From NCBI GenBank assembly GCA_023411795.1, contig JAEYOK010000027.1, positions 62,609 to 126,608 on the forward strand: a stretch of DNA of 64,000 bases. The letters run 5' to 3'. Shown in pieces: positions 11,578-25,112 of this stretch. The notes beneath the pieces were generated by a model, which made no database searches, was not told where the DNA came from, and saw nothing but the letters and a program-made list of their open reading frames with translations. Position numbers and translations under genes: made by a program. The first letter of the stretch is position 1. Each line of letters begins with the position of its first letter. Source of the stretch: Bacillota bacterium. Its GTDB lineage: Bacteria > Bacillota > Clostridia > DSM-8532.

Positions 11578-14500
11578 ATGAATACTAGCAAGCTCATATC
11601 AATTGTTATTCCTGTATATAATACTGAGATCTATCTGGAGAGGTGTTTGCAAAGTCTGATAAACCAGACTTACCGCAATCTCCAGATTATTGTAGTCAAT
11701 GATGCTTCACCGGGAAATGTTAATGAAATTATGGAGCATTATCAAACCATAGATAATCGTATCGTATATATAGAGCACAAAAAAAACATTGGAGTCTTTA
11801 AGGCCAGAATTTCGGGCTTGCAGGCGGCAAACGGAGAATATATCTCATTTGTCGACAGCGACGATTATATAGGAACTGATTATTACCGTTTATTAATTTC
11901 TGAAGCAGAAAAAAGTCAGGCTGACATGGTTTTTTCCAGAACCGTACTAGTAGGTCAGGAGAAAACCGTCTTTGGAATGCATGAAGTAGCATTCCCAAAT
12001 GAAATTATTGACGGTGAAAGTATCTTTTTAGATTTTTTTCTTGCTCAGGAAGGAAGATGCTACAATTGGCATACCTTATGGAACAAGCTATATAAAAAGA
12101 CCCTATGGGATAAATGCCTTATCTTTTTTGATCAATACAAAGAACATATTAATATGATGGAAGATATAGCCTGCTCCTTTCCCTTATTTTATTATGCCCG
12201 AAAAATAAGCAAGGTTGAAAATAGTGTTTATTATTATTGCCAGAATACCGGAAGTGCTACTGATGCTAAGACAGCATCATTTGAAAAGCTTAAGAAAAAT
12301 CTTGCTGACACATTCAGAATATTTGAAATAGTCGAAGAATTTTTAAAATCAATCAATGCTTCTGATAAGGTATTCAGCAAATATTATGATTTCAGGAACT
12401 ACTATATAAGAGATTGGAAGAATGGTATAGAGTTTTTCAACGACTCCGAAGAAAGAAAGGTACTTACCGGTATGATTACATCCACATATGGTGAAATAGG
12501 TAATTATATATTGGATGACAGGTTCTTCAGATCAGTGCGAACAATCTGGAATGATGATATAGAAGAGATAAAGAAGAAAATCTGTAATCCTGAATATGAA
12601 TATATAAGCTTTGATATTTTTGATACTTTAGTCACAAGACCATTTTACAGACCTAGTGACTTATTCCATCTACTAGACAAACTTTTCGAGAAGATTTACA
12701 AAGCAAAATTAAGTTTCCACCAAATCAGAATAGATGGAGAGATAAGTGCAAGAGTAAATCTGCAAAAAAGCAGCTTAGGTTTCCAAGATATTACTATAGA
12801 TGAGATATATGATAGTATCAGTGAAATATACGGAATACCAGCAAACATTTGTTCAGCTTTGAGAGAAGAAGAGAAAAGACTTGAAATCTTCTTTTGCACC
12901 ATCAGGAAAACTACAAAAGAGCTGTTTGACCTTGCTAAATATTCAGGTAAAAAAATAATTCTTGTATCGGATATGTACCTCGACAAGAGTACTATTGAAA
13001 GCATTCTTCATAAAAATGGGTATACAGGTTACGAACGAATATTCCTTTCATCAGAAGAGCGGCTTCTTAAGCATACGGGAGACCTTTTCAAAAAAGTTCT
13101 TGGCGTTCTGAAGGTTGATGGAAGCAAAATCCTCCATATAGGTGATAACCATTACTGCGATGTGACCAAAGCGAATGAAGCCGGCTTACACACAGTATAT
13201 CTACCACGGACGATCAACGTTTTTGAAAACAAAGTAAAAGAGCTTGATACCAGAGAATGCAGTACTCTTGCACAAAATGTCAGCGGTGTAATACTTGATG
13301 GAAGCAGGTTTCTTGAGTCAGTTGGGTACGGCTCAATGATAGCAATTGTAGCAAACCATTACTTCGATAATCCGTTCCGTCCTTTTAACAGTGAGAGCGA
13401 TTATAATGCTGATCCATACTTTATAGGGTATTATGCTTTGGGGATGCATTTGGCGGGTTTAATAAACTGGATATTACAGCAATCTTACGTTTATAAAAGA
13501 ATCCTGTTTATGGCGCGTGATGGTTTTCTTGTAAAGCAGGCATATGATATATGGACTGCGTCTATGGACAATACCCCTGTATCGGATTATGTCTATGCTT
13601 CGCGGAAAATGCTTCTCCCAGCATCTATTGAAAATACTGCTGATTTTTTTAATCTGCCTATTGTATATAGCAGTTACAATGCCATATCAATTCTTGAGTT
13701 ATTGGACTTCTGCACAAATGATACGTCTGAAGAAATACGCAGTGCTATTTTTGAAGAAAACAAGATTCAGGAAAACCTAAATTTCAAGACGAAGAATGAA
13801 TATTTTGAATTTATGAAATTCTATTTAAAATATTTCTATAATGAGGAAAAGCATAATGACTCAAAACAGTTATTAAAAGAATACTATGACGGGATCAGTA
13901 ACGCAGACATTATATTTGATATAGGCTACACAGGCAGTGTACCGTATGCATTTAAGCAGATTTCAGGTAAATCTATTGACGCTTTATTTGTATATAGCAG
14001 TATTGCGAAGACTTCACAAATGAGTCGCAAGGGCAATTTCAAAATCAAAACTTTCTATGATTTTACTCCTGAGGTCCCAATGTTGTTGAGAGAGCATGTC
14101 TTATCCGCTCCTCACCCTTCATGTATAGGATTAAATCAAAAAAGTGATAAGATTATACCCATCTTCGAGGATACAGAAAAATCCTATACCGATACTTTCG
14201 TCATAAACAGGCTACATGAGGGGGCATTACAGTTTATTAAGGATTTCTCAGGGTATTTCAGGGATTATCTTGATTATACCATGTTTAAAAGCTATGAGGT
14301 TTCCATGCCATTTGAAGCTTTCCTCAGAATTCCTACAGGCAAGGACTTACAAATATTTGAAAGCTCCTATTTTGAGGATAAGGTTTATGGACGGCAAAAT
14401 GCTATTAATATTGCAAGATATATAGAAAACTATTACAAGTCATTGCCTCAGTATACCAGTAATAATATGGTAGAATCCCTAAGAGATTCTTTGATTGATA

Positions 14501-14796
14501 ACATAAAATATAACCGCAAGCTAGTTTGCTTTGGTACAGGGAAAAAATGTAGAGAATTTTTATCCGAATATCCCGATATCCCTGTGAGCTTTTTCTTGGA
14601 TAATGATAGAAAATTAGCCGGTACTTATTTGAATAATAAAGAGATACGGCATCCTGAGCAAGTTGATAACTGGAACAGCATTTATATAATAATTACTACG
14701 TATTATAGTTCCGAGATTGAAAAGCAGCTAAGAAACCTTGGTCTGGAAAAATACAAAAACTTTATTAGTTTTCAGGAGTTATTTGGCATTGCATAA
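11578..14796 (+). CDS. Multidomain GT2 glycosyltransferase - HAD-like hydrolase/phosphatase - 'RDG' module - Rossmann-like module fusion (1072 aa)
   Basis: N-terminus ISIVIPVYNTEIYLERCLQSLINQTYRNLQIIVVNDAS and FVDSDD are GT2 (GT-A) motifs. ISFDIFDTLVTRP, ILVSDMY and IGDNHYCD are HAD motifs I, II and IV. ILFMARDGFLVKQAY follows, and the C-terminus has KLVCFGTGKK...LDNDRKLAG. RBS GAGGAG. Confidence 0.8.
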   Translation: MNTSKLISIVIPVYNTEIYLERCLQSLINQTYRNLQIIVVNDASPGNVNEIMEHYQTIDNRIVYIEHKKNIGVFKARISGLQAANGEYISFVDSDDYIGTDYYRLLISEAEKSQADMVFSRTVLVGQEKTVFGMHEVAFPNEIIDGESIFLDFFLAQEGRCYNWHTLWNKLYKKTLWDKCLIFFDQYKEHINMMEDIACSFPLFYYARKISKVENSVYYYCQNTGSATDAKTASFEKLKKNLADTFRIFEIVEEFLKSINASDKVFSKYYDFRNYYIRDWKNGIEFFNDSEERKVLTGMITSTYGEIGNYILDDRFFRSVRTIWNDDIEEIKKKICNPEYEYISFDIFDTLVTRPFYRPSDLFHLLDKLFEKIYKAKLSFHQIRIDGEISARVNLQKSSLGFQDITIDEIYDSISEIYGIPANICSALREEEKRLEIFFCTIRKTTKELFDLAKYSGKKIILVSDMYLDKSTIESILHKNGYTGYERIFLSSEERLLKHTGDLFKKVLGVLKVDGSKILHIGDNHYCDVTKANEAGLHTVYLPRTINVFENKVKELDTRECSTLAQNVSGVILDGSRFLESVGYGSMIAIVANHYFDNPFRPFNSESDYNADPYFIGYYALGMHLAGLINWILQQSYVYKRILFMARDGFLVKQAYDIWTASMDNTPVSDYVYASRKMLLPASIENTADFFNLPIVYSSYNAISILELLDFCTNDTSEEIRSAIFEENKIQENLNFKTKNEYFEFMKFYLKYFYNEEKHNDSKQLLKEYYDGISNADIIFDIGYTGSVPYAFKQISGKSIDALFVYSSIAKTSQMSRKGNFKIKTFYDFTPEVPMLLREHVLSAPHPSCIGLNQKSDKIIPIFEDTEKSYTDTFVINRLHEGALQFIKDFSGYFRDYLDYTMFKSYEVSMPFEAFLRIPTGKDLQIFESSYFEDKVYGRQNAINIARYIENYYKSLPQYTSNNMVESLRDSLIDNIKYNRKLVCFGTGKKCREFLSEYPDIPVSFFLDNDRKLAGTYLNNKEIRHPEQVDNWNSIYIIITTYYSSEIEKQLRNLGLEKYKNFISFQELFGIA

Positions 14797-14825
14797 ATGA
14801 AAACATTAAAAAAGGAGAAATAATT

Positions 14826-15257
14826 ATGAAACCTTATAAAACTGGTTATATTGCGGGTGTTTTTGATTTATTTCACATAGGACACCTGAACCTTCTCCGA
14901 AAGGCAAAGGATAAATGTGAATACTTAATAGTGGGCATATTAACAGATGAACTGGTTCATCATTTTAAGAACAAGCTGCCTTTTATTAACCAGGATGACC
15001 GAAAAGAGATTGTACAGGCTATTAAATATGTTGATCAGACAGTTTTGGTTTCTTTTGATAATATCGATAAAATGAAAGCATGGGAATTATATCATTTTGA
15101 CTGCTTATTTTCCGGTGATGACTGGAGGAACGAGCCAAGCTGGGCTGCGGACAAAAAGAGACTGAATGAGGTTGGCTCAAACATCGAATTTTTCACATAT
15201 ACTCAAGGTATCAGCTCCACGCAAATTAGGAGCCAGATTCAAAATGAAAACAAATAG
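14826..15257 (+). CDS. tagD: Glycerol-3-phosphate cytidylyltransferase (TagD/TarD family)
   Basis: GVFDLFHIGHLNLLRKAK (HxGH motif) and YTQGISSTQIR match the TagD family, and the 143-aa size fits. RBS AGGAGA. Confidence 0.85.
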   Translation: MKPYKTGYIAGVFDLFHIGHLNLLRKAKDKCEYLIVGILTDELVHHFKNKLPFINQDDRKEIVQAIKYVDQTVLVSFDNIDKMKAWELYHFDCLFSGDDWRNEPSWAADKKRLNEVGSNIEFFTYTQGISSTQIRSQIQNENK

Positions 15258-15282
15258 AAAGATATGAATATTTTCTTCACTC

Positions 15283-16014
15283 TTATCCAAAGATCTGAGA
15301 GGTTTCTCTGGCATCAAGCATTGCCTTGAACATATAAAAATCTATCGCGGTCGTTACCTTTAGATTATCAGCAGAGCCTAATACCTGACGAAGTTTATGA
15401 CCGTAATAACTCATAAGTGACGCTGTATCAATAAAGTTCATTTTATTTTCTGAATTTGCTTTTTTATGAACGGCTAATACATCCTTAATATAAAAGCTCT
15501 GGGGTGCCTTTGCTACTCTTGCAGTATTACGATCAATAACCTGATCTATAAAACCTTCACTATTAACAGTGACAACCGTTTCATACTGATATGCGACAGT
15601 AACTCCGCTGCCATATTTTTTGACTGACTCGATATTTTGGGAAATCAGCTGTTGGTTTATCAAAGGCCTGACACCATCATGAAGCAGAACAATATCATCA
15701 TCCGAAAGGTCTACATTCTCTTCTATTTTTTTTAGTGCATTATAAATTGAACTCTGTACTGTTTCTCCGCCTTTAACAATCCACCTTACCTTTTTTATTC
15801 CAAAACGACATAATTCATTTTTAAGTGTTTCAATCCAGCTTTCAAGACATGCGACAACAATGAAATCAATATCTGGATGAAACTCAAAATGCTCTATCGT
15901 GTGTAATAAAATCGATTTGCCATGTAGCTCCAAAAATTGCTTCGGTTTGGTTTGACTATTCATGCGTACTCCGGTACCGCCTGCAAAAATAACTGCTATA
16001 TTCAATAGTGACAC
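15283..16014 (-). CDS. IspD/TarI-family cytidylyltransferase (CDP-ribitol / CDP-polyol synthase-like)
   Basis: N-terminal AVIFAGGTGVRM...KPKQFLELHGKSIL is typical of the IspD/TarI nucleotidyltransferase fold. GTG start. Convergent with tagD. Confidence 0.75.
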   Translation of the reverse strand: MSLLNIAVIFAGGTGVRMNSQTKPKQFLELHGKSILLHTIEHFEFHPDIDFIVVACLESWIETLKNELCRFGIKKVRWIVKGGETVQSSIYNALKKIEENVDLSDDDIVLLHDGVRPLINQQLISQNIESVKKYGSGVTVAYQYETVVTVNSEGFIDQVIDRNTARVAKAPQSFYIKDVLAVHKKANSENKMNFIDTASLMSYYGHKLRQVLGSADNLKVTTAIDFYMFKAMLDARETSQIFG

Positions 16015-16175: not shown

Positions 16176-17903
16176 CTACATTTTAAACTTCGCAACAGTG
16201 CTTTGCATATCTTGAGCTAGTTGAGATAAATTTTCACTGGCTAATGTGAGCTCTTTTATTGATGCAACCTGCTGCACGGTCGATGAAGTCACTTCTTCGG
16301 TGGACGCAGAATTTTCCTCAGCAATTGCAGACAAGCTATCCAAAGTATTTAGAATAACATTTTTCATTTCAACCATTTCCTGTCCAGCTAAATTTAATTC
16401 TGAAATAGCTCGTTGAGATCCTTTCATTGCTTCATCAATCAATTTGTATTTTTCACTATTCTTTATGACACTTTCAGTCTGTTCCACTGTGATCTGGGAT
16501 ATCCTTTCCATAGTATTTACTGCATCTTGCGAATTCATTTGCAGTTCTTCAACTATTTGATCGATTGTTTTAATAGAATCGGTTGATTGTTCAGCCAACT
16601 TCTTAATTTGATCTGCCACGACTGCAAAGCCTCTTCCTGATTCTCCCGCTCTAGCAGCTTCTATAGCGGCATTTAAAGATAACATATTAGTCTGTTCTGC
16701 AATAGAAGCAATGATACTACTTGCCTGATTTATTTTTTGTGCGCTCTCGTATGTCTTTATTATGATATCATTAATAGTTTTGTTTGCTATATTGTTCTCG
16801 TCATTGATCTTAGTCAGTCTTTCGATTTCAGCAAGGCCTTCCCGGACAAATTCAGTAACATTAACAACGGCTTGGTTAATATTATTGGTCTGTTCGATAT
16901 CCTTATCGATAATATTCCCTAATAAGACCGCTTTTGAAGCCCCTGTTTCAGTATTTTGGGCTTGTTCTGACGCACCTTTTGCAATTTCGTCAACGGCTCT
17001 TGAAACTTCCTCTATGGCACTTGATGATTCCTGTGATGATGCAGTCATTTCCTGTGAGGTCGCGGCCAGCTGCTCAAATGATTCTTTAATCTGCGTGATA
17101 ACCCTTCGGAGGCTTTCTTTAATACTATTTAGCGATTGGGCTAAATCTCCGAGTTCGTCTTTTCTCGTTAGATCTTTTTCAGAAACTTCGATCCCGAGAT
17201 TTAGGCTTGCCAGTTGTTTGGAAAAATCCGCTGCATTTTTTATCGGTTTCGTAATACTACTTGACAATAATAACCCACTTACAAAAATAATCACAACTAA
17301 TAAGCCTATAATAATATTGCATGTTCTTTGGAACGTGGTAAGTCCTTCCTGTGCCAATTCAACACTGTAATCAACACCTACAAATCCGACAACAGCCCCT
17401 GCATCATTTTTGATAGGAAAATAAGTGCTTATAAGAGATCCCCACTTTTCATCTTCGAAGATTTCACTGTCTGTAAAAGCTTCACCGCTCCATGTCTGCT
17501 CATATTCCGGTATGGACTCTTCAGTGTCACCTATATGCGAAAAATCTTCATCAGTAGAGCCGTCTATCACATACATAAAGTCACCCTGATCGGTTTTTCT
17601 CATAGTATAAACATACTTTGCACCGCTTAATTCTCGAATCTTAATGAGATCATCTCTCATTTTGGTGTATGAAGGTGTATTCTCGTCTTCCATAGTTTCA
17701 AGCTTAACGAATTCATTTACATCTATTAGTTTACTTGCCTGCTCTGCTGTACTATAAGCTCTTATGGCAGTTTCCCTTAATAGCATTGATGAGGTTTGGT
17801 TGTATAATATTGCGATAAGCAAGAGGGTAAGAACTAATACAATAATTAGAAATAGCACTGTTATTCGCAATTTAATGCTTTTTTTCATAGATAAGTTTAT
17901 CAT
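16176..17903 (-). CDS. Methyl-accepting chemotaxis protein with N-terminal TM, Cache-like sensor, HAMP and MA signalling domain
   Basis: TM helix at aa 12-34 and a periplasmic-type sensor ending in [10 protein letters not shown] second TM follows, then a HAMP-like segment. The signalling hairpin [38 protein letters not shown] is conserved. Confidence 0.9.
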
Positions 17904-18052: not shown

Positions 18053-18307
18053 TTATCCTTGCGAAGGTGTATTTTTATCCTTCTTTTTGAACTTATCATT
18101 AAGAATTTGAATATTGGTTTGTTTTCCTGCAACCGCAGTAATATTCTCTTTTTTGATTTCTTCAAAAATCTCCTTACGATGGATAGTAACACTTTTAGGG
18201 GCATTGATGCCAATTCGCACCTGATCCCCTTGTATATCAATTATTGATAATTCAATATCATGGCCAATCATGAGAGATTGCCCTTTTTTTCTTGTCAGTA
18301 CGAGCAT
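18053..18307 (-). CDS. csrA: Carbon storage regulator CsrA (flagellar-type)
   Basis: MLVLTRKKGQSLMIGHDIELSIIDIQGDQVRIGINAPKSVTIHRKEI is the canonical CsrA sequence. RBS GAGGAGTG. Confidence 0.95.
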   Translation of the reverse strand: MLVLTRKKGQSLMIGHDIELSIIDIQGDQVRIGINAPKSVTIHRKEIFEEIKKENITAVAGKQTNIQILNDKFKKKDKNTPSQG

Positions 18308-18344: not shown

Positions 18345-18776
18345 TTAGTTTGCTTTTCCAAGATAGTACCGTATTGGAAGGCTGTCATTCTTTTGAATTA
18401 CCTGTTTACCAAGCTTTTTATCCATGTTTATCAGTATCGGTGCCTTTAGATTAACCCTTATTTCATTTATCTCTTCCGGAATAACTACAATAGTCAAACT
18501 TAAAACCCGGTTGGTGTCAGTAATTCCCAGTAGTTCTACATCCTCGTCGTCCACATCCACTCCATATCCATCATAAACCATAAACGGGTCTGTGACAACA
18601 AAACATAATTCCGGCATATCTATACTCTGTAGCCAGAAGAATGTAGCCTCACCATCATCATTCCCTATTAGCATGTATTTTTTACTGTTTTCGAATCCAG
18701 GTATACCTTCTGGGAAATATATAAAATCCTCTTCATTAAAATCAATAACTCCAAAATGTCCTGTTTCCAACTGCAT
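18345..18776 (-). CDS. fliW: Flagellar assembly factor FliW
   Basis: 143 aa with FPEGIPGFE...FFWLQS...FVVTDPF motifs. Sits in the conserved position between flgL and csrA. Confidence 0.9.
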   Translation of the reverse strand: MQLETGHFGVIDFNEEDFIYFPEGIPGFENSKKYMLIGNDDGEATFFWLQSIDMPELCFVVTDPFMVYDGYGVDVDDEDVELLGITDTNRVLSLTIVVIPEEINEIRVNLKAPILINMDKKLGKQVIQKNDSLPIRYYLGKAN

Positions 18777-18800: not shown

Positions 18801-19709
18801 TTAACTTAAAAAATCCACCAAAGAGGGTTGGATAACCTTTGCGCCTGTTGCAAGAGAGGCCTGATAGACATTACTTTCATTCTGCAGGTTTATAATTGCT
18901 TCTGCGATATCAACATCTTCATTTTTACTCATTAACTTAGTGAAATTTACATTATCTTCATCAAGCCTGTCCGCAGTTAAATCGACCCGATTCATTCGAG
19001 CACCCAGACCTGCCCTTACGCGTAAAACATTACCCAGTTCATCATCCAAATCACCTAAAAGACTTGAAAGCTCACTTTTATCATCCGACTCCATTGCATT
19101 TATTACATCATCAAAGGTTTGTACAAACGAGCTTTTTGCTCCCGCTGTACCGGTGATTCCTTCATTAAAAAGGTCACTTCCCGGTACATTTATATTAATC
19201 TTGTCCCCAATGCCAATCTCAAACTTTATTTGCTCACCATTGGCGATATCAACATTAAAGGTACCATCATCATTCAGCAAAGGTTTATCGGTTTTAAAGC
19301 CCGAGAAAATGTATCGTCCTGCATATGTGGCATTGCCCAGACTGATTAACTGGGTTTTGAGCTGGGCTGCCTCCTCTTTGATCTTTAATAGGTCATCGGA
19401 GGTATTTGTTCCGTTAGCAGCCTGATTGGCAATTTCCTTCATTCTTTGAACCACATCGGTCATTTGACCCATGGTGGCTTCAGTAATATCCATCCAGGCC
19501 GTCGCATCATCTGTGTTGCGTTTATATTGAGATATTTCAGCCACATCAGTACGGAGCTTCAAAGCCTTGGATGCAACTATAGGATCATCTGACGGAAGGC
19601 TTATTTTCTTTCCTGATGCTAACTGATTCATGTATTTCTGGGTTTGGTTTAAATTGCCCGAAAGGCTTAGCATCATATTATTCATTAGCATATTGTTTGT
19701 GATTCGCAT
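18801..19709 (-). CDS. flgL: Flagellar hook-associated protein 3 FlgL
   Basis: MRITNNMLMNNMM... N-terminus and a flagellin-family C-terminus. The start at 19709 follows GGGGG; the longer track ORF to 19763 overlaps the flgK end. Confidence 0.85.
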   Translation of the reverse strand: MRITNNMLMNNMMLSLSGNLNQTQKYMNQLASGKKISLPSDDPIVASKALKLRTDVAEISQYKRNTDDATAWMDITEATMGQMTDVVQRMKEIANQAANGTNTSDDLLKIKEEAAQLKTQLISLGNATYAGRYIFSGFKTDKPLLNDDGTFNVDIANGEQIKFEIGIGDKININVPGSDLFNEGITGTAGAKSSFVQTFDDVINAMESDDKSELSSLLGDLDDELGNVLRVRAGLGARMNRVDLTADRLDEDNVNFTKLMSKNEDVDIAEAIINLQNESNVYQASLATGAKVIQPSLVDFLS

Positions 19710-19722
19710 AAGTTTACCCCCT

Positions 19723-21387
19723 TTATATTCCGAGCCTGTTAACCAATATGTCCAAGACCTCACTGAAGGTTTGAATCATTGTGGCCGATGCTCCGTATAT
19801 TTGTTGATATTTAACAAGGTTTGTCATTTCCTCATTTAATGAAACACCTGAGATAGACTGCCGTCTATTTTCAATTTGGTATGTTATTCCCTCCTGAACA
19901 TCCAAATATTGATTATACTGCTGACCATCTACACCCATAGAAGAAATAACGGTCTTAATGAAGTCCTCCGGAGCACCTTCCATAAACATGTATGTGTTGT
20001 GCCTCATTTGTAGTAATTTATTGACGTTTTCATTATTACCCGCTTCACCGGGTGCTGAAGATGCTGATATGTTTTCACTTGGATCGTCTTCTATATCAAA
20101 GCTGATTGAAAAATTACGAGCCGTAATTTTCTGATACCCTGCTACAAGTCTTTCATCCCAAGCTGTCGTTGGGTCATCGGATATGCCCTTAGAAGCTGCG
20201 TAAGATAAAGCCTGAGCCTCAAAATCAGCGCTTGACATATACTCCCCATATTCATTAACCATAGAGAAGAAACGGATTCCTGATGGGGTTGTGCCTGTTA
20301 ATGTATAGCCGTCTACATGGCCTTCCGATTTATTTAGCATACCATCGCCATCGGTATCCATGATGCCCTCGTTGAATGACATGGCAAAGGTTCTGACGAA
20401 CTCATTCATTTTCCTCTGGTAATAGGGTATACCCTTGCAGTTTGGAGTACTCTTTCCATCCGAACCCGGTTCTCCGTCATTGCCGTCACGCATATCAAGA
20501 TAAGCTTTCAACTCTCCGGATTTTAACTGCAACTTATTACCATCGGCCCAGGACACTTCATATAGGTTTTCAATATCCTCTTCATTGAGCTTCGTCTCCC
20601 TGCTTTCACACTTTAAGTGTACTGACTGCTCATGATCTACCAAAGCCTTGCCACTGATGGTTACAACGAAACGGGTTTCTTTTTCACCATTGGGAAGTTT
20701 CAGCCCTGTTTCAGTTTCATAGGCACTCACGTTTACAATCTTAGATAGCTTGTCTACGAGATAGCCTCTTCTGTCTCTTAAATCATTAGCTTTGTTTCCC
20801 ATAACTTCAAAATGATATATCTGAAGATTTAAGTCCCTGATTTGGTCGGCTAGATTGTTTACTTCTTCCACCTTGGCATTGACCATGTTATTATAATCCT
20901 CTTGGAGATAATCGAAATGTGTGGCAACATTGTTAAAATAATTTGCCACTGCAACACCCTTTTCTTTTACCATGGCACGGGTGGAAAGACTTGATGGATC
21001 AGTGGTCAAGGTCTGCAACGCACTATAAAAATCATTTATTATTTTTGTATATCCATTATTACTTGGCTCATTATAAATTGTCTGCATATCCTCAATAATT
21101 GTTGACTTAACGCTCCATTCACCCAGATACTGAGCTTCGCTCCAATACTTTTCATCTAAATATATATCTCTGACCCTGTCTACGCTAACCACATCGGAGC
21201 CCATACCCAACATACCTGCGCTGTTAGCAACGAGTAATGGACGGGCAGAGGTTTGATTAATAACCTGTCTTGAATATCCCGGTGTATTGGTATTATCAAT
21301 ATTATGAGCAACATTAGCCATTCCTCTTTGAGATGAATAAAGGCCTCTCATTGCTATTTCCAAACCCATATATGTAGTATTATTCAT
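19723..21387 (-). CDS. flgK: Flagellar hook-associated protein 1 FlgK (paralogue 1, 554 aa)
   Basis: N-terminus has ...RGMANVAHNIDNTNTPGYSRQ. C-terminus has SLNEEMTNLVKYQQIYGASATMIQ. The variable middle contains DTDGDGMLNKSE. Confidence 0.85.
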   Translation of the reverse strand: MNNTTYMGLEIAMRGLYSSQRGMANVAHNIDNTNTPGYSRQVINQTSARPLLVANSAGMLGMGSDVVSVDRVRDIYLDEKYWSEAQYLGEWSVKSTIIEDMQTIYNEPSNNGYTKIINDFYSALQTLTTDPSSLSTRAMVKEKGVAVANYFNNVATHFDYLQEDYNNMVNAKVEEVNNLADQIRDLNLQIYHFEVMGNKANDLRDRRGYLVDKLSKIVNVSAYETETGLKLPNGEKETRFVVTISGKALVDHEQSVHLKCESRETKLNEEDIENLYEVSWADGNKLQLKSGELKAYLDMRDGNDGEPGSDGKSTPNCKGIPYYQRKMNEFVRTFAMSFNEGIMDTDGDGMLNKSEGHVDGYTLTGTTPSGIRFFSMVNEYGEYMSSADFEAQALSYAASKGISDDPTTAWDERLVAGYQKITARNFSISFDIEDDPSENISASSAPGEAGNNENVNKLLQMRHNTYMFMEGAPEDFIKTVISSMGVDGQQYNQYLDVQEGITYQIENRRQSISGVSLNEEMTNLVKYQQIYGASATMIQTFSEVLDILVNRLGI

Positions 21388-21416: not shown

Positions 21417-23489
21417 TTACGATGCTCCCATTCTGAACATAATTGTCTCCAGCATCTGATTTATTACGTCAATTACTTTGGAGTTGGCATTATATGCAAA
21501 TTTATATTTAATCATATTTGTCATTTCCTCATCCAACGACACACCCATTATTGACTGTCTGTTAGAGTCGGCCTGAGTTACAAGGCTCTGGTAGCTCGAT
21601 ACCATGTTGGAAGCTTCGTAACCCTTATTACCAATATCAAGAATTATATTTTGGTAGTATGTATCAAGACTCAGTACCTTTTTATTGCCCGTCATAAGAT
21701 TCTGATTTCGTATCCCGGCTATAGCAAGGGCTATTTGATTGTCTCCGTTGGCATCTGTTGCAGATGCTGCGATATTATTCACATCTTTCAAATTATCGCT
21801 TACTTTAATGTTACCTAGTCCAATGGGTAGAGATGGCTCAATAGCTTCAAAAAACAGTCCCCCGGCGGCGCCCTTCAGAGTTGTTCCCGATAGATGAAGC
21901 CTGTTTACTTCCCGAGCCATTATATTAATCAATGCATTCAATTGCTTACTTACAGATGAAATAATATTCAGGTCGTCTGAAACGGTAGACATCTTCATAT
22001 TTACGTCCGAATTTATATCAGACGATGCCTTTTTCATGAGTGCGTCAATATCGGTAGTTGCCTCTATGCCATAAGTCTTTCCACCGGTTTGTTCTGTAAT
22101 GAAGCTCCATCCTCTTTCTCCGGTATCACCTTCAGAGTGATTAATAGGGTCAGTCGCAACCGAAACAGTTATACCCATTTTTTTCAATCTGTTTACATAC
22201 CCTACCACAGTTGCATCACCGGTAACAGTACCCTCTCCGTCTATATCACCGTCCCCGTTAATACTTTCATCAGTAAAAACAAAAAGATATTTGTTTACAT
22301 CTTCAAGGTAAGAATTACCCCCTACGGCATCGATAACATCCTCAAAATTATTTTCTGTTCCGGTGTCTGTTGTTAGAGCGGAGACAGCATTGACAAAAGC
22401 GTCGGTATCCTTGCCAAAAAGAGTATTAGTGACGGCTGCCGAGCCTCCGAAGGTGACCAGTCTAAAGTTATAATCCAATCCCCTACTCTTGATATCCCCA
22501 ACAAAGGCTTCAATATTAGCCTTAATTTTTGCAAGGTTGTCGGCACCAGTACTGGAAATATCCACAGCAATGGTTATATCACTGGTTGTGTTAGGTGTTC
22601 CGTTCTCATAGCCGTTCTTTGCACCGCTTACTTCACCTCTGGCTTCAAGTAAACCCTTTATTATGCCCTGACCGACATTAATTGGAATATCTCCACCACT
22701 AGCTTGTAGCATGGGTGTATAAAAATGCGATAAATCACTATTTGGGGCAGCTACAAGTTTTGTCTGCTCACCCTTGCTAACAAGGAAATACCCACCTACC
22801 AGAATATCCATGCTGCCATCCCGAGTCTCCCAGGTTTCAACATCTATAAGTTTAGAAAGTCTATCGCATAATAAATTTCTCTGGTCATAATAGTCATTGG
22901 GTAAATTTCCTGCGGCTTCCGCACTCATTATTTTTACATTTAAAGCAGCAATATCCTCAGTTATATCATTGACCTCATCAATACGAGATTTTATCTCTGT
23001 GTTCAGGTCTGTTTGAAGCTTGGTAATCTGACTACCTACCTGATTCAAGTAATTTGTCAGCGAATCGGCTCTTTGCTTAACCAAAGCGCGGATTGTGAGA
23101 CTCTCCGGAGCTTTGCTCAACTCCTGAAAGGAGTCCCAGAAATTATTTAAAGCTACCTGGAAACCCTTCTGAATAGGTTCTCCTAATATAGACTCCAGAT
23201 CGGTAATTGCTTTGCTTCTGCTTTCCCAATACCCCAGATTATTACTTTCAGTTCGATAAATATTATCACTAAAGGTATGACGTATCTGGCGAATCTGTTG
23301 TATATCCGTACCCATCTCAAGATACCAGTTACCATATCTTTTTACCGCAGCCGACGCCATAACAGCACTCTGTCTTGAATATCCGATCGTGCCAAGATTA
23401 GCCACGTTATGGCCGGTTACTTCAAGTGCTTTTTGATTTGCAGTTAGTCCTGAAACGGCTGTATCCATTCCAAAAAAACTAATGGACAT
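21417..23489 (-). CDS. flgK: FlgK-family hook-associated protein (paralogue 2, 690 aa) with inserted vWA-like domain
   Basis: N-terminus has FGMDTAVSGLTANQKALEVTGHNVANLGTIGYSRQ. C-terminus has SLDEEMTNMIKYKFAYNANSKVI. Aa ~304-495 show a vWA pattern (ITIAVDISSTG ... TGTEN ... LFVFTDES ... EQTGGKTY). Confidence 0.8.
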   Translation of the reverse strand: MSISFFGMDTAVSGLTANQKALEVTGHNVANLGTIGYSRQSAVMASAAVKRYGNWYLEMGTDIQQIRQIRHTFSDNIYRTESNNLGYWESRSKAITDLESILGEPIQKGFQVALNNFWDSFQELSKAPESLTIRALVKQRADSLTNYLNQVGSQITKLQTDLNTEIKSRIDEVNDITEDIAALNVKIMSAEAAGNLPNDYYDQRNLLCDRLSKLIDVETWETRDGSMDILVGGYFLVSKGEQTKLVAAPNSDLSHFYTPMLQASGGDIPINVGQGIIKGLLEARGEVSGAKNGYENGTPNTTSDITIAVDISSTGADNLAKIKANIEAFVGDIKSRGLDYNFRLVTFGGSAAVTNTLFGKDTDAFVNAVSALTTDTGTENNFEDVIDAVGGNSYLEDVNKYLFVFTDESINGDGDIDGEGTVTGDATVVGYVNRLKKMGITVSVATDPINHSEGDTGERGWSFITEQTGGKTYGIEATTDIDALMKKASSDINSDVNMKMSTVSDDLNIISSVSKQLNALINIMAREVNRLHLSGTTLKGAAGGLFFEAIEPSLPIGLGNIKVSDNLKDVNNIAASATDANGDNQIALAIAGIRNQNLMTGNKKVLSLDTYYQNIILDIGNKGYEASNMVSSYQSLVTQADSNRQSIMGVSLDEEMTNMIKYKFAYNANSKVIDVINQMLETIMFRMGAS

Positions 23490-23504: not shown

Positions 23505-24011
23505 TTAATACCTAATATCCAGTACACTTCTTTTTTCGCCACCCGAGATCTCTGTTCCACTCCTGCCATAAGTAGGTACTGCAGGTTCGGGAGCGGCAAT
23601 AAGCTGAATGTTAAAATCTAAATACTTTATGGCATTTTCGATTAATCTCTTGTTTATATTATTTTTTGCAGTTAATTTTCCTAGTAACTCGGTCATTCTA
23701 CTCTGAATCTCATCAAGCTGCTTTTTATATGGTTCATTGACAAGCTTTTTCAGCTTATCAAGAGTCAATAACTTAAACTCCTGATTATAGTCTTCGGCCA
23801 AAGAGCTTAAAATCTGTTCCCTAACCTTATTAAGCTTAAGGGTTTGATCAGCCATTGCCCTTTCTTTTTCTGTAATTACAGCTATTTCAGATGCATCGTT
23901 CTTAACAAGTGCATCAGTTTTAGCCTCGGCAATTTTATAAATTTCCAGATATGTTCTATATTCATACTGCAGTGCTGTTATCAGCTTCTCTATAAGTTTA
24001 TTATCGGGCAA
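23505..24011 (-). CDS. flgN: Flagellar chaperone FlgN family (YvyG-like)
   Basis: Helical 168-aa protein between flgM and flgK, as in B. subtilis. The TTG at 24011 lies 8 nt after GGGAGG, with an alternative ATG at 24050. The rest of the track ORF (to 24176) is a translated duplicated non-coding box. Confidence 0.7.
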   Translation of the reverse strand: MPDNKLIEKLITALQYEYRTYLEIYKIAEAKTDALVKNDASEIAVITEKERAMADQTLKLNKVREQILSSLAEDYNQEFKLLTLDKLKKLVNEPYKKQLDEIQSRMTELLGKLTAKNNINKRLIENAIKYLDFNIQLIAAPEPAVPTYGRSGTEISGGEKRSVLDIRY

Positions 24012-24060
24012 TTTAATTACCTCCCAGGCTATTATCAATAATTTGTTCATATACTTAGAG

Positions 24061-24088
24061 TATCGGAACTGTTTTAATAATTCCTTTA
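24061..24088 (-). promoter_or_regulatory. Candidate sigma-28 (SigD/FliA)-type promoter for flgN
   Basis: The minus strand reads TAAAggaattattaaaacagtTCCGATAC about 45 nt upstream of the flgN RBS. The -10 CCGATA is good, but the spacer is 17 nt rather than the consensus 15. Confidence 0.35.
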
Positions 24089-24204
24089 CTATACGAAGAA
24101 TCCGCAGGATTTCTTCAAATGTATATGAAATACGGTAGTAATTCATATACTTAGAGTATAGGAACTGTTTTAACAATTCCTATACTTTTATATCGGCATA
24201 AATT

Positions 24205-24244: not shown

Positions 24245-24532
24245 TTATATCTTTTTTGTTTCCAGAGACTCTACAATTTTTCCCGCCACATCAGTTGCCT
24301 TAACAGAATATTGTCCACGTTCTATTTTTTGTGTAATCTCATCTACCTTGTCCTGCCGAATATCAGGAATCTGTCTTAATGCCTTCATAATACTGGTAAA
24401 GTCTTTAGCTGTCCCGGATATTGAGAACTCATCCTTTTTAGATGCTACCTCACCAACCTTGGCTTGCTTGTCAATCTTACCGGTATTTCCATAGACACCC
24501 GTTACCTTGGGAATATTTCCCCAAATTTTCAT
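24245..24532 (-). CDS. flgM: Anti-sigma-28 factor FlgM
   Basis: 95 aa. The C-terminal IRQDKVDEITQKIERGQYSVKATDVAGKIVE is typical of FlgM. RBS GGAGAGG. Confidence 0.85.
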   Translation of the reverse strand: MKIWGNIPKVTGVYGNTGKIDKQAKVGEVASKKDEFSISGTAKDFTSIMKALRQIPDIRQDKVDEITQKIERGQYSVKATDVAGKIVESLETKKI

Positions 24533-24680: not shown

Positions 24681-25112
24681 CTAATCTTTACGCTCACCAT
24701 GAAGATAGCGTAATCCGGCTTTGTCTTTCGCGGACATATCGGAGTATTTATCAACTACATCCCTTAATGATCTCCCTGCCGAAATCATATCATTTGCCAG
24801 CTTTTTAGAACATGTTATACAAAAGCGCCCGCTTTTAATTCTTGATCCGCAATTTTCACATTGCAACGCAATAGGGCTTTCCTCGGACACCTCCAATTTT
24901 CCTTCCTTTAAAAACCGATAGATTAGCTGAGTGGGCACTAAGGTCTCCTTCGCGACCTCCTGAACGGTAGCTCCGGGAAATTCCCTTACAAAAGTACGTA
25001 CTTTTTCAAATTCCTCTTCTTCAAGTTTCTTGCATTCATTACAAAGTTGAGGTCCCGTGCCTCCAAACATGAATATTCTTCTACACCTTTTACAATTCTT
25101 AACCTCAGGCAT
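24681..25112 (-). CDS. Flagellar operon zinc-ribbon protein, YvyF family
   Basis: CKRC...CNEC and CENC...CITC zinc-ribbon pairs flank a winged-helix-like middle, colinear with B. subtilis YvyF. Strong RBS GGGGGAGGG. Confidence 0.75.
   Translation of the reverse strand: MPEVKNCKRCRRIFMFGGTGPQLCNECKKLEEEEFEKVRTFVREFPGATVQEVAKETLVPTQLIYRFLKEGKLEVSEESPIALQCENCGSRIKSGRFCITCSKKLANDMISAGRSLRDVVDKYSDMSAKDKAGLRYLHGERKD

Follow-up and report, generated by a model that had tools for sequence, protein, structure and literature searches.

The 64,000-nucleotide stretch of Bacillota bacterium DNA analyzed here (assembly GCA_023411795.1, contig JAEYOK010000027.1, positions 62,609 to 126,608; the whole stretch is hereafter called the window) contained a flagellar gene, flgK1, that encodes a FlgK (hook-associated protein 1) whose middle region houses a nested domain of the von Willebrand factor A (VWA) fold. 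The same architecture was found across an entire lineage of anaerobic Clostridia, together with a second flgK gene without the insert. The metal ion-dependent adhesion site (MIDAS) of the domain was filled in the window protein and incomplete in most of the family. Because the domain has been retained over deep divergence with an invariant linker and invariant core residues while its MIDAS has decayed, we consider it somewhat more probable than any other single explanation, with slightly better than even confidence, that FlgK1 is a junction subunit with a captured VWA fold as its exposed outer domain, and that the role shared by the family would be structural or one of protein contact.

The 690-amino-acid product of flgK1 is a genuine FlgK. 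It was encoded by one uninterrupted open reading frame (ORF) and scored 312 bits against the equivalog TIGR02492 (cutoff 170.75), and its Pfam matches included Flg_bb_rod (PF00460) at the N-terminus (27.7 bits), FlgK_D1 (PF22638; 163.9 bits, 5.8e-48), and Flg_bbr_C (PF06429) at the C-terminus (38.8 bits). The best sequence matches in PDB were the FlgK proteins of Salmonella, Burkholderia, and Campylobacter. When the AlphaFold2 (AF2) model of the whole protein was searched with Foldseek, FlgK structures occupied ranks 1 to 11 (E-values from 1e-13 to 3e-8), and proteins with a VWA fold came next. The mean predicted local distance difference test (pLDDT) score of this model was 77.8, and the insert was located in its high-confidence part and displayed an alternating beta/alpha pattern. 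Two small ORFs in other frames (22089-22376 on the plus strand and 22373-22570 on the minus strand) were set aside as mere shadows of the flgK1 coding frame. FlgK subunits pass through the flagellar type III channel in an unfolded state and assemble into a short zone atop the hook, and FlgK1 would, by homology, form the first junction zone between the hook and FlgL.

Several independent lines of evidence identified the insert of FlgK1 as a VWA-fold domain. The Pfam model PF00092 (VWA) matched amino acids 304-441 of FlgK1 with 31.5 bits (E 2.5e-7), which is above its gathering score of 23.8, and reached 34.0 bits (E 4.2e-8) when the insert was scanned alone. The same model individually matched 19 of 29 orthologous inserts, the best of these at 2.9e-13. 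When the insert sequence alone was compared with PDB sequences by phmmer, nothing meaningful was returned; integrin I-domains were reached only with a profile of the 29 orthologous inserts, and the top sequence match of this profile in PDB was the integrin alpha-M I-domain (E 0.007). The AF2 model of the insert alone had a pLDDT of 86 and a predicted template modeling score (pTM) of 0.86, and contained, in order and in model numbering, beta 7-15, alpha 21-41, beta 44-52, beta 59-64, alpha 67-75, alpha 87-95, beta 104-110, alpha 130-142, beta 145-151, alpha 166-173, beta 177-179, and alpha 186-203. A Foldseek search of this model against PDB gave 466 matches at E ≤ 1e-3, and the top 50 were all VWA folds; the fold neighbors included the vWFA domain of LapA (E 6e-9, TMt 0.69), TFIIH p44, BatB, integrin beta-I, the pilus adhesin SpaC, Rpn10, and Ku. 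The initial annotation of this DNA had proposed a vWA domain in FlgK at positions 22005-22580, an interval that, on the minus strand, corresponds exactly to amino acids 304-495 of FlgK1, and all of the peptides that it quoted were found in the translation. It had also named two observations that would speak against the domain, namely a lack of vWA in profile searches and an insert that forms part of the ordinary D2/D3 beta-domains. Neither was made, as PF00092 matched above its gathering score and the insert model matched VWA folds.

The VWA domain is nested cleanly within a loop of the FlgK core. The FlgK_D1 match of native FlgK1 (164 bits) was split, with profile positions 2-195 at amino acids 96-287 and the rest beyond the insert, whereas in silico removal of amino acids 296-503 rejoined it into one contiguous match that covered profile positions 2-233 of 233 with 178 bits. 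In the alignment with Salmonella FlgK, amino acids 10-284 of the query corresponded to residues 7-287 and amino acids 578-683 to residues 447-549; the insert was located between these two segments and therefore sits in the variable middle of FlgK. Pfam, Foldseek, and the excision thus agreed with the placement of the domain between the conserved N- and C-terminal parts of FlgK that had been described initially. Such a protein could also be simulated by a chimera that arose during assembly, or by an ORF call that wrongly joins a VWA gene to flgK. However, nothing was found in favor of an artefact, the ORF was uninterrupted, its flanks rejoined as a perfect FlgK_D1 match, and the same architecture recurred in over 100 protein clusters that are independent of one another, as well as in 81 genome loci, isolate genomes included. 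The probability of an artefact was consequently taken to be negligible, and this explanation was ruled out.

In the native junction of Salmonella, as seen by cryo-electron microscopy, 11 FlgK and 11 FlgL subunits are reported to be present, with the D1 helices buried and the D2 domain of FlgK exposed to the extracellular environment (PMC12221982). The variable middle of FlgK1 that houses the insert would, by homology, include the region that is equivalent to Salmonella D2, and approximately 11 VWA domains would then be displayed on the outside of the hook-filament junction. The N- and C-termini of VWA folds and I-domains are adjacent and lie on the face opposite the MIDAS; for this reason, the MIDAS face of the insert should be directed outward, away from the flagellar axis.

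The VWA-bearing FlgK is lineage-wide and not particular to this genome. A search with full FlgK1 returned 611 homologues at E ≤ 1e-5, and the best 120 of these were nearly all 640-715 amino acids long, many with a precomputed VWA call. The related loci (81 in total, 80 from a genome scan and one from a contig look-up) belonged to metagenome-assembled genomes (MAGs) of Acetivibrionales and "Clostridiaceae," many of them from anaerobic digesters, and to Thermoclostridium caenicola DSM 19027, Herbivorax sp., four species of Ruminiclostridium, and UBA genomes of Hungateiclostridiaceae. The survey of FlgK homologues that had been suggested at the outset thus revealed the same insert in all 81 loci, in each of which a hidden Markov model of the insert matched the FlgK1 ORF, and also a duplicated flgK that had gone unmentioned. 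As the FlgK1 cores have diverged to approximately 42% identity across the clade, the domain has been kept over a deep divergence. The flgM-flgN-flgK-flgL context of the window was also seen in these loci.

A profile search of the insert over 1.84 billion representatives yielded 857 proteins at E ≤ 1e-3. Approximately a dozen of the clusters at 50% identity were of the FlgK type by their length and match position, and three of these were confirmed with Pfam. The next best matches outside FlgK were giant extracellular multi-VWA proteins, some of which carried cohesin, dockerin, or type IX secretion system (T9SS) tail domains. These relatives keep a DxTGS...TD motif, and no specific donor could be named because each of their domains scored merely 40-46 bits or so. 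Matches of 600-800 amino acids beyond approximately E 1e-11 were considered as further VWA-bearing flagellar proteins, and those tested were lectin, T9SS, or generic VWA proteins and not flagellar. A homologue search with the insert alignment gave two fragments only.

Conservation within the insert was uneven. Its mean pairwise identity was 46%, in comparison with 64-72% for the core segments, making the insert the most variable region of FlgK1; high variability is typical for the exposed outer domains of axial proteins. On the other hand, the NGxPN linker just before the VWA domain was far better conserved than the domain that it precedes, and may serve as a docking or hinge element. Outside the MIDAS, the residues that were strictly conserved among 120 family representatives comprised this linker, G337, N399, and S443, as well as W461, T468, G470, and Y473 of a C-terminal motif (Table 1).

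The MIDAS behaved differently. In FlgK1 of the window, all five positions were filled, with Thr in place of the second Ser: D310, S312, and T314 of the DxSxT loop, T378, and D407, which aligned with D140, S142, S144, T209, and D242 of the integrin alpha-M I-domain (1IDO/1JLM). The near-complete MIDAS of the initial annotation was accordingly present in this protein, with the correction that the Thr is T378 and not T376, which was rejected because the alpha-M alignment places T378 on T209. Among the 120 family representatives, Asp was found at position 310 in 119, Ser at 312 in 96 (Ala in 21), Thr at 314 in 74, Thr at 378 in 45, and Asp at 407 in only 30, with Gly in 37. A full MIDAS, scored as D-[ST]-[ST]-[ST]-D, was present in only 18 representatives and was thus incomplete in 85%. 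The 18 were the close relatives of the window protein (P0001-P0012, at least 81% identical and all DSTTD) and a few scattered others, and position 407 was already Gly, Ala, or Asn in relatives that were 74-80% identical to FlgK1. No canonical MIDAS was found in the genome loci examined of Ruminiclostridium cellobioparum, R. sufflavum, R. papyrosolvens, R. hungatei, Thermoclostridium caenicola, and Herbivorax, and none of the cultured species recovered had a full one. The alignments thus indicate that the VWA fold was kept across the family and the metal site was not. A MIDAS-dependent function would be expected to conserve the site among orthologues, and it was not conserved; therefore, ligand binding through the MIDAS cannot be the function that the family has in common.

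These results bear on the explanation suggested initially, in which the domain exists for metal-dependent adhesion or recruitment. In an adhesin or receptor, the divalent cation of the MIDAS would bind an acidic group of an external ligand, for example on plant cell-wall material, another cell, the bacterium's own surface layer, or a sheath, and the base of the filament would become an attachment point. The five filled MIDAS positions of the window protein and its close relatives are consistent with such a role, as are the true adhesins among the fold neighbors (LapA vWFA, SpaC, and integrin I-domains) and the giant extracellular proteins that are the nearest relatives outside FlgK and retain the DxTGS...TD motif. 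However, the domain has been kept in the large majority of representatives and in every cultured species recovered despite an incomplete MIDAS, and D407 is replaced even in rather close relatives. Furthermore, some 11 copies at the cell-proximal end of a rotating filament would represent a poor geometry for adhesion when compared with the filament or the cap, and no sheath genes or dedicated partner genes were found in the flagellar operon; nothing in the window pointed to the recruitment of a sheath or of a glycan enzyme. An adhesin or receptor role was therefore regarded as unlikely, and metal-dependent adhesion as the family function of the VWA-FlgK is not supported by the comparison of orthologues.

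The sub-clade of the window organism may nevertheless have a functional metal site. An acidic insertion of six residues (DIDGEG, amino acids 415-420, 22230-22247 on the minus strand) was observed right after the strand of the MIDAS Asp, in a Gly/Asp-rich loop (INGDG-DIDGEG-TVTGD). It was specific to the window protein among the aligned relatives shown, of which P0047 alone has a different extension there, and the AF2 confidence was below 50 across the stretch. An intact MIDAS beside this loop may leave room for a metal-bridged contact in the window organism. One elaboration of this possibility is a FlgK1/FlgK2/FlgL junction whose first zone is ringed by approximately 11 outward VWA domains, with the intact MIDAS as a metal-dependent clamp on an acidic loop of FlgK2, the second FlgK described below (for example, DTDGDGMLNKSE), or on an external ligand such as plant fiber or the cell's own surface. 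We hold this elaboration to be quite improbable; if true, a ring of metal clamps would be a mechanical or adhesive function of the junction that is not known for any flagellum.

For the preferred structural or protein-contact role, the following arrangement is proposed. FlgK1 would display a VWA fold of approximately 200 residues at the place where other FlgKs carry exposed outer beta-domains, and approximately 11 of these would form an outer collar on the junction. The collar would contact the outer domains of laterally neighboring FlgK1, FlgK2, or FlgL subunits, and such lateral contacts could stiffen or shield the junction without the need of a metal. In the window organism and its closest relatives, the domain may additionally bind Mg2+, Mn2+, or Ca2+ and, through the metal, hold on to a partner by one of its acidic side chains.

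Several points weigh against this arrangement. The lateral contacts, and the way in which the domain is turned with respect to the D0/D1 core, are parts of it that we infer. The low conservation of the insert would equally fit a domain of little functional importance, and the five MIDAS residues retained in the window sub-clade could mean real ligand binding there. In nine of the loci (L066-L069, L074, L076, and L079-L081, from Hungateiclostridiaceae UBA genomes and related MAGs), FlgK1 was approximately 650-660 amino acids long, and its match to the VWA profile was split, weak, and without positions 57-85 or so; the domain appears to be partly eroded in this sub-lineage and is therefore not indispensable. 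A homologue of 883 amino acids (P0120) carried two tandem VWA inserts, at amino acids 298-490 and 496-690 approximately, and the insertion site therefore tolerates duplication of the domain.

Erosion in some lineages and duplication in another are typical of hypervariable outer regions, and would also be expected if the VWA domain were a neutral passenger that was captured once in a variable outer loop and that contributes at most bulk, a spacer, or antigenic or phage-receptor variation. Its persistence would then be attributed to the outer domains of axial proteins, which would accept nearly every fold that is compact and has its termini side by side. The insert being the least conserved region of FlgK1 and the decay of its functional site are in agreement with a passenger. 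Nevertheless, the fold signature was intact in every one of the loci despite the divergence of the core, and the invariance of the NGxPN linker and of residues outside the MIDAS argues for a constraint on folding and docking. A passenger was accordingly judged improbable, and the structural or protein-contact role was preferred.

Table 1. Coordinates of flgK1, of elements within it, and of neighboring genes in the window.
Feature	Position	Strand	Basis or description
flgK1 (VWA-bearing FlgK, hook-associated protein 1)	21417..23489	-	One uninterrupted ORF, 690 aa; TIGR02492, Pfam, and PDB matches
VWA-fold domain, aa 302-501 (beta1 302-310 to last helix 481-501)	21987..22586	-	Pfam, AF2 secondary structure, Foldseek, and in silico excision; encloses 22005-22580
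Linker N296-G-x-P299-N300, just before VWA	22590..22604	-	G297, P299, N300 in 120/120; N296 in 117/120
MIDAS loop 1, D310-I-S312-S-T314 (DxSxT)	22548..22562	-	Aligned to alpha-M D140/S142/S144
MIDAS Thr candidate T378 (G-T-E-N-N-F)	22356..22358	-	Aligned to alpha-M T209
MIDAS Asp candidate D407 (end of beta4, VFTDES)	22269..22271	-	Aligned to alpha-M D242
C-terminal motif G-W461-x-x-I-T-x-x-T468-G-G470-K-x-Y473	22071..22112	-	W461, G470 in 120/120; T468 in 118/120; Y473 in 117/120
flgK2 (second FlgK paralogue, no VWA)	19723..21387	-	554 aa; TIGR02492 286.5 bits; FlgK_D1 7e-42
flgL (hook-associated protein 3)	18801..19763	-	320 aa; Flagellin_N and Flagellin_C; directly after flgK genes
flgN (export chaperone for FlgK/FlgL)	23505..24176	-	PF05130 4.9e-17
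flgM (anti-sigma-28)	24245..24532	-	PF04316 4e-18
fliW	18345..18776	-	PF02623 8e-40
CsrA-like ORF (candidate)	18053-18307	-	84 aa, starts MLVLTRKKGQSLMIGHDIELSIIDI; by appearance of sequence; after fliW
Methyl-accepting chemotaxis protein (MCP) gene	16176-17903	-	Next after csrA-like ORF
Zn-ribbon protein	24681-25112	-	143 aa, CxxC motifs; between comF-like gene and flgM; weak Pfam zinc-ribbon matches only

The operon of flgK1 contained, in order, a comF-like gene, a gene encoding a Zn-ribbon protein, flgM, flgN, flgK1, flgK2, flgL, fliW, and a csrA-like ORF, with recD2 also located upstream (Table 1). FlgK1 and FlgK2 both scored above the TIGR02492 cutoff and were 34% identical in their N-terminal alignment (amino acids 4-225, D0/D1 region) and 28% identical in the C-terminal part. 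The true start of flgL is probably an internal ATG that gives MRITNNML. Whenever the sequence of a locus was of sufficient length, a VWA-bearing FlgK1 (approximately 650-740 amino acids) was followed by FlgK2 (approximately 530-575 amino acids, without VWA) and then by FlgL. This gene order suggests that, in the Acetivibrionales/Ruminiclostridium clade, the hook-filament junction is built from three proteins, namely the tandem FlgK1 and FlgK2 together with FlgL.

The variable middle of FlgK2 contained a predicted calcium-binding loop of the canonical EF-hand/dockerin-like type (DTDGDGMLNKSE, amino acids 344-355, 20323-20358 on the minus strand; D1, D3, D5, G6, L8, and E12). Only 13 of the 67 FlgK2 orthologues had the strict EF-hand-like pattern at this position. 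This loop was considered as a conserved partner of the MIDAS and rejected, as the pattern was missing in two loci with a full MIDAS (L002 and L003) and no support for co-variation was obtained. The region beside the flagellar operon (11578-16014) contained, on the opposite strand, a cytidylyltransferase-like gene and a gene for a GT2 glycosyltransferase of 1072 amino acids that includes a HAD-like segment; a gene for an IspD-like cytidylyltransferase on the minus strand came next. This region could represent a teichoic-acid-type or glycan-modification cluster.

The gene order of the window resembled that of the late flagellar operon of Bacillus subtilis, yvyF-flgM-yvyG(flgN)-flgK-flgL-fliW-csrA, including the upstream comF-like gene and the Zn-ribbon gene, whose position is that of yvyF. 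In contrast to B. subtilis, the window has flgK twice, the first copy with a VWA domain, and an MCP gene rather than a flagellin gene after the csrA-like ORF; in several of the related loci, a flagellin gene was observed at this place. FlgK1 shared the D0/D1 terminal helices, the FlgK_D1 and TIGR02492 matches, the position between flgN and flgL, and the fold with FlgK (HAP1) of Salmonella enterica (2D4Y, 9GO6), Campylobacter jejuni (5XBJ, 9GSX), and Burkholderia pseudomallei (4UT1), but differed from these in the VWA alpha/beta domain in mid-protein and in the tandem duplication of its gene. As was stated initially, a VWA domain is not a feature of textbook FlgK, and no solved FlgK was among the VWA matches of the insert profile or Foldseek searches, although the solved FlgKs themselves were not scanned.

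Other VWA proteins were less close in context. The insert has the fold and the MIDAS order of the integrin alpha-M I-domain, but carries DxSxT instead of DxSxS, does not conserve its MIDAS among orthologues, and is hosted by a type III-exported, self-assembling axial subunit. Given the lack of conservation of the site among orthologues, it was not classed as an integrin-type, functionally MIDAS-dependent I-domain. LapA vWFA (9NO5) and the pilus tip adhesin SpaC (6M3Y) were the closest or near-closest folds, and both present their VWA domain outside the cell, on an appendage or a surface protein. However, sequence identity to them was approximately 18%, the VWA domain of FlgK1 would be at the junction and not at the tip, and none of their other modules was detected. 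In a Pfam scan of FlgK1 at E ≤ 0.1, only FlgK and VWA models were found and the C-terminus was the FlgK D0 helix, a sorting motif not having been specifically searched for. Because only FlgK and VWA domains were detected, FlgK1 was not filed as a pilus-type adhesin (SpaC/RrgA).

The nearest conceptual precedent for the VWA-FlgK appears to be the capture of foreign domains by flagellins. In the proteolytic flagellin "flagellinolysin," a functional domain is inserted in the hypervariable region of flagellin (PMC5595980). In both cases, the variable outer region of an axial protein has taken up a foreign globular domain between conserved D0/D1 flanks, and FlgK1 followed this principle in that excision restored FlgK_D1 and the core (64-72% identity) was better conserved than the insert (46%). 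The host, however, is FlgK and not flagellin, approximately 11 copies are expected instead of thousands, and the fold is one of binding or scaffolding and not an enzyme. These proteins are already entered in public databases as "FlgK," many with a precomputed VWA call. Text searches of the literature recovered no paper that links FlgK with a VWA domain or describes tandem FlgK paralogues in these bacteria, and in the sole paper where FlgK and VWA occur together, they concern unrelated organisms; a VWA-bearing FlgK is apparently undescribed so far.

The hook-filament junction is usually seen as a minimal two-protein adaptor of 11 FlgK and 11 FlgL, with outer domains that have no assigned function. 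In a whole clade of environmentally important anaerobes, which covers cellulolytic Ruminiclostridium, the Acetivibrionales of anaerobic digesters, and Thermoclostridium, FlgK has been duplicated and one copy decorated with a protein-interaction fold. If the domain were merely a tolerated passenger, this would amount to a modest annotation note only. If the VWA collar stabilizes the junction or binds a metal or ligand, domain capture by axial outer domains would extend from proteolytic flagellins to the junction, and FlgK1 would in addition provide a naturally permissive position at which foreign domains could be displayed on the flagellum at a defined copy number. Furthermore, the FlgK1/FlgK2 pair raises the question of how three adaptor layers, and not two, reconcile the differing mechanics of hook and filament in these bacteria.

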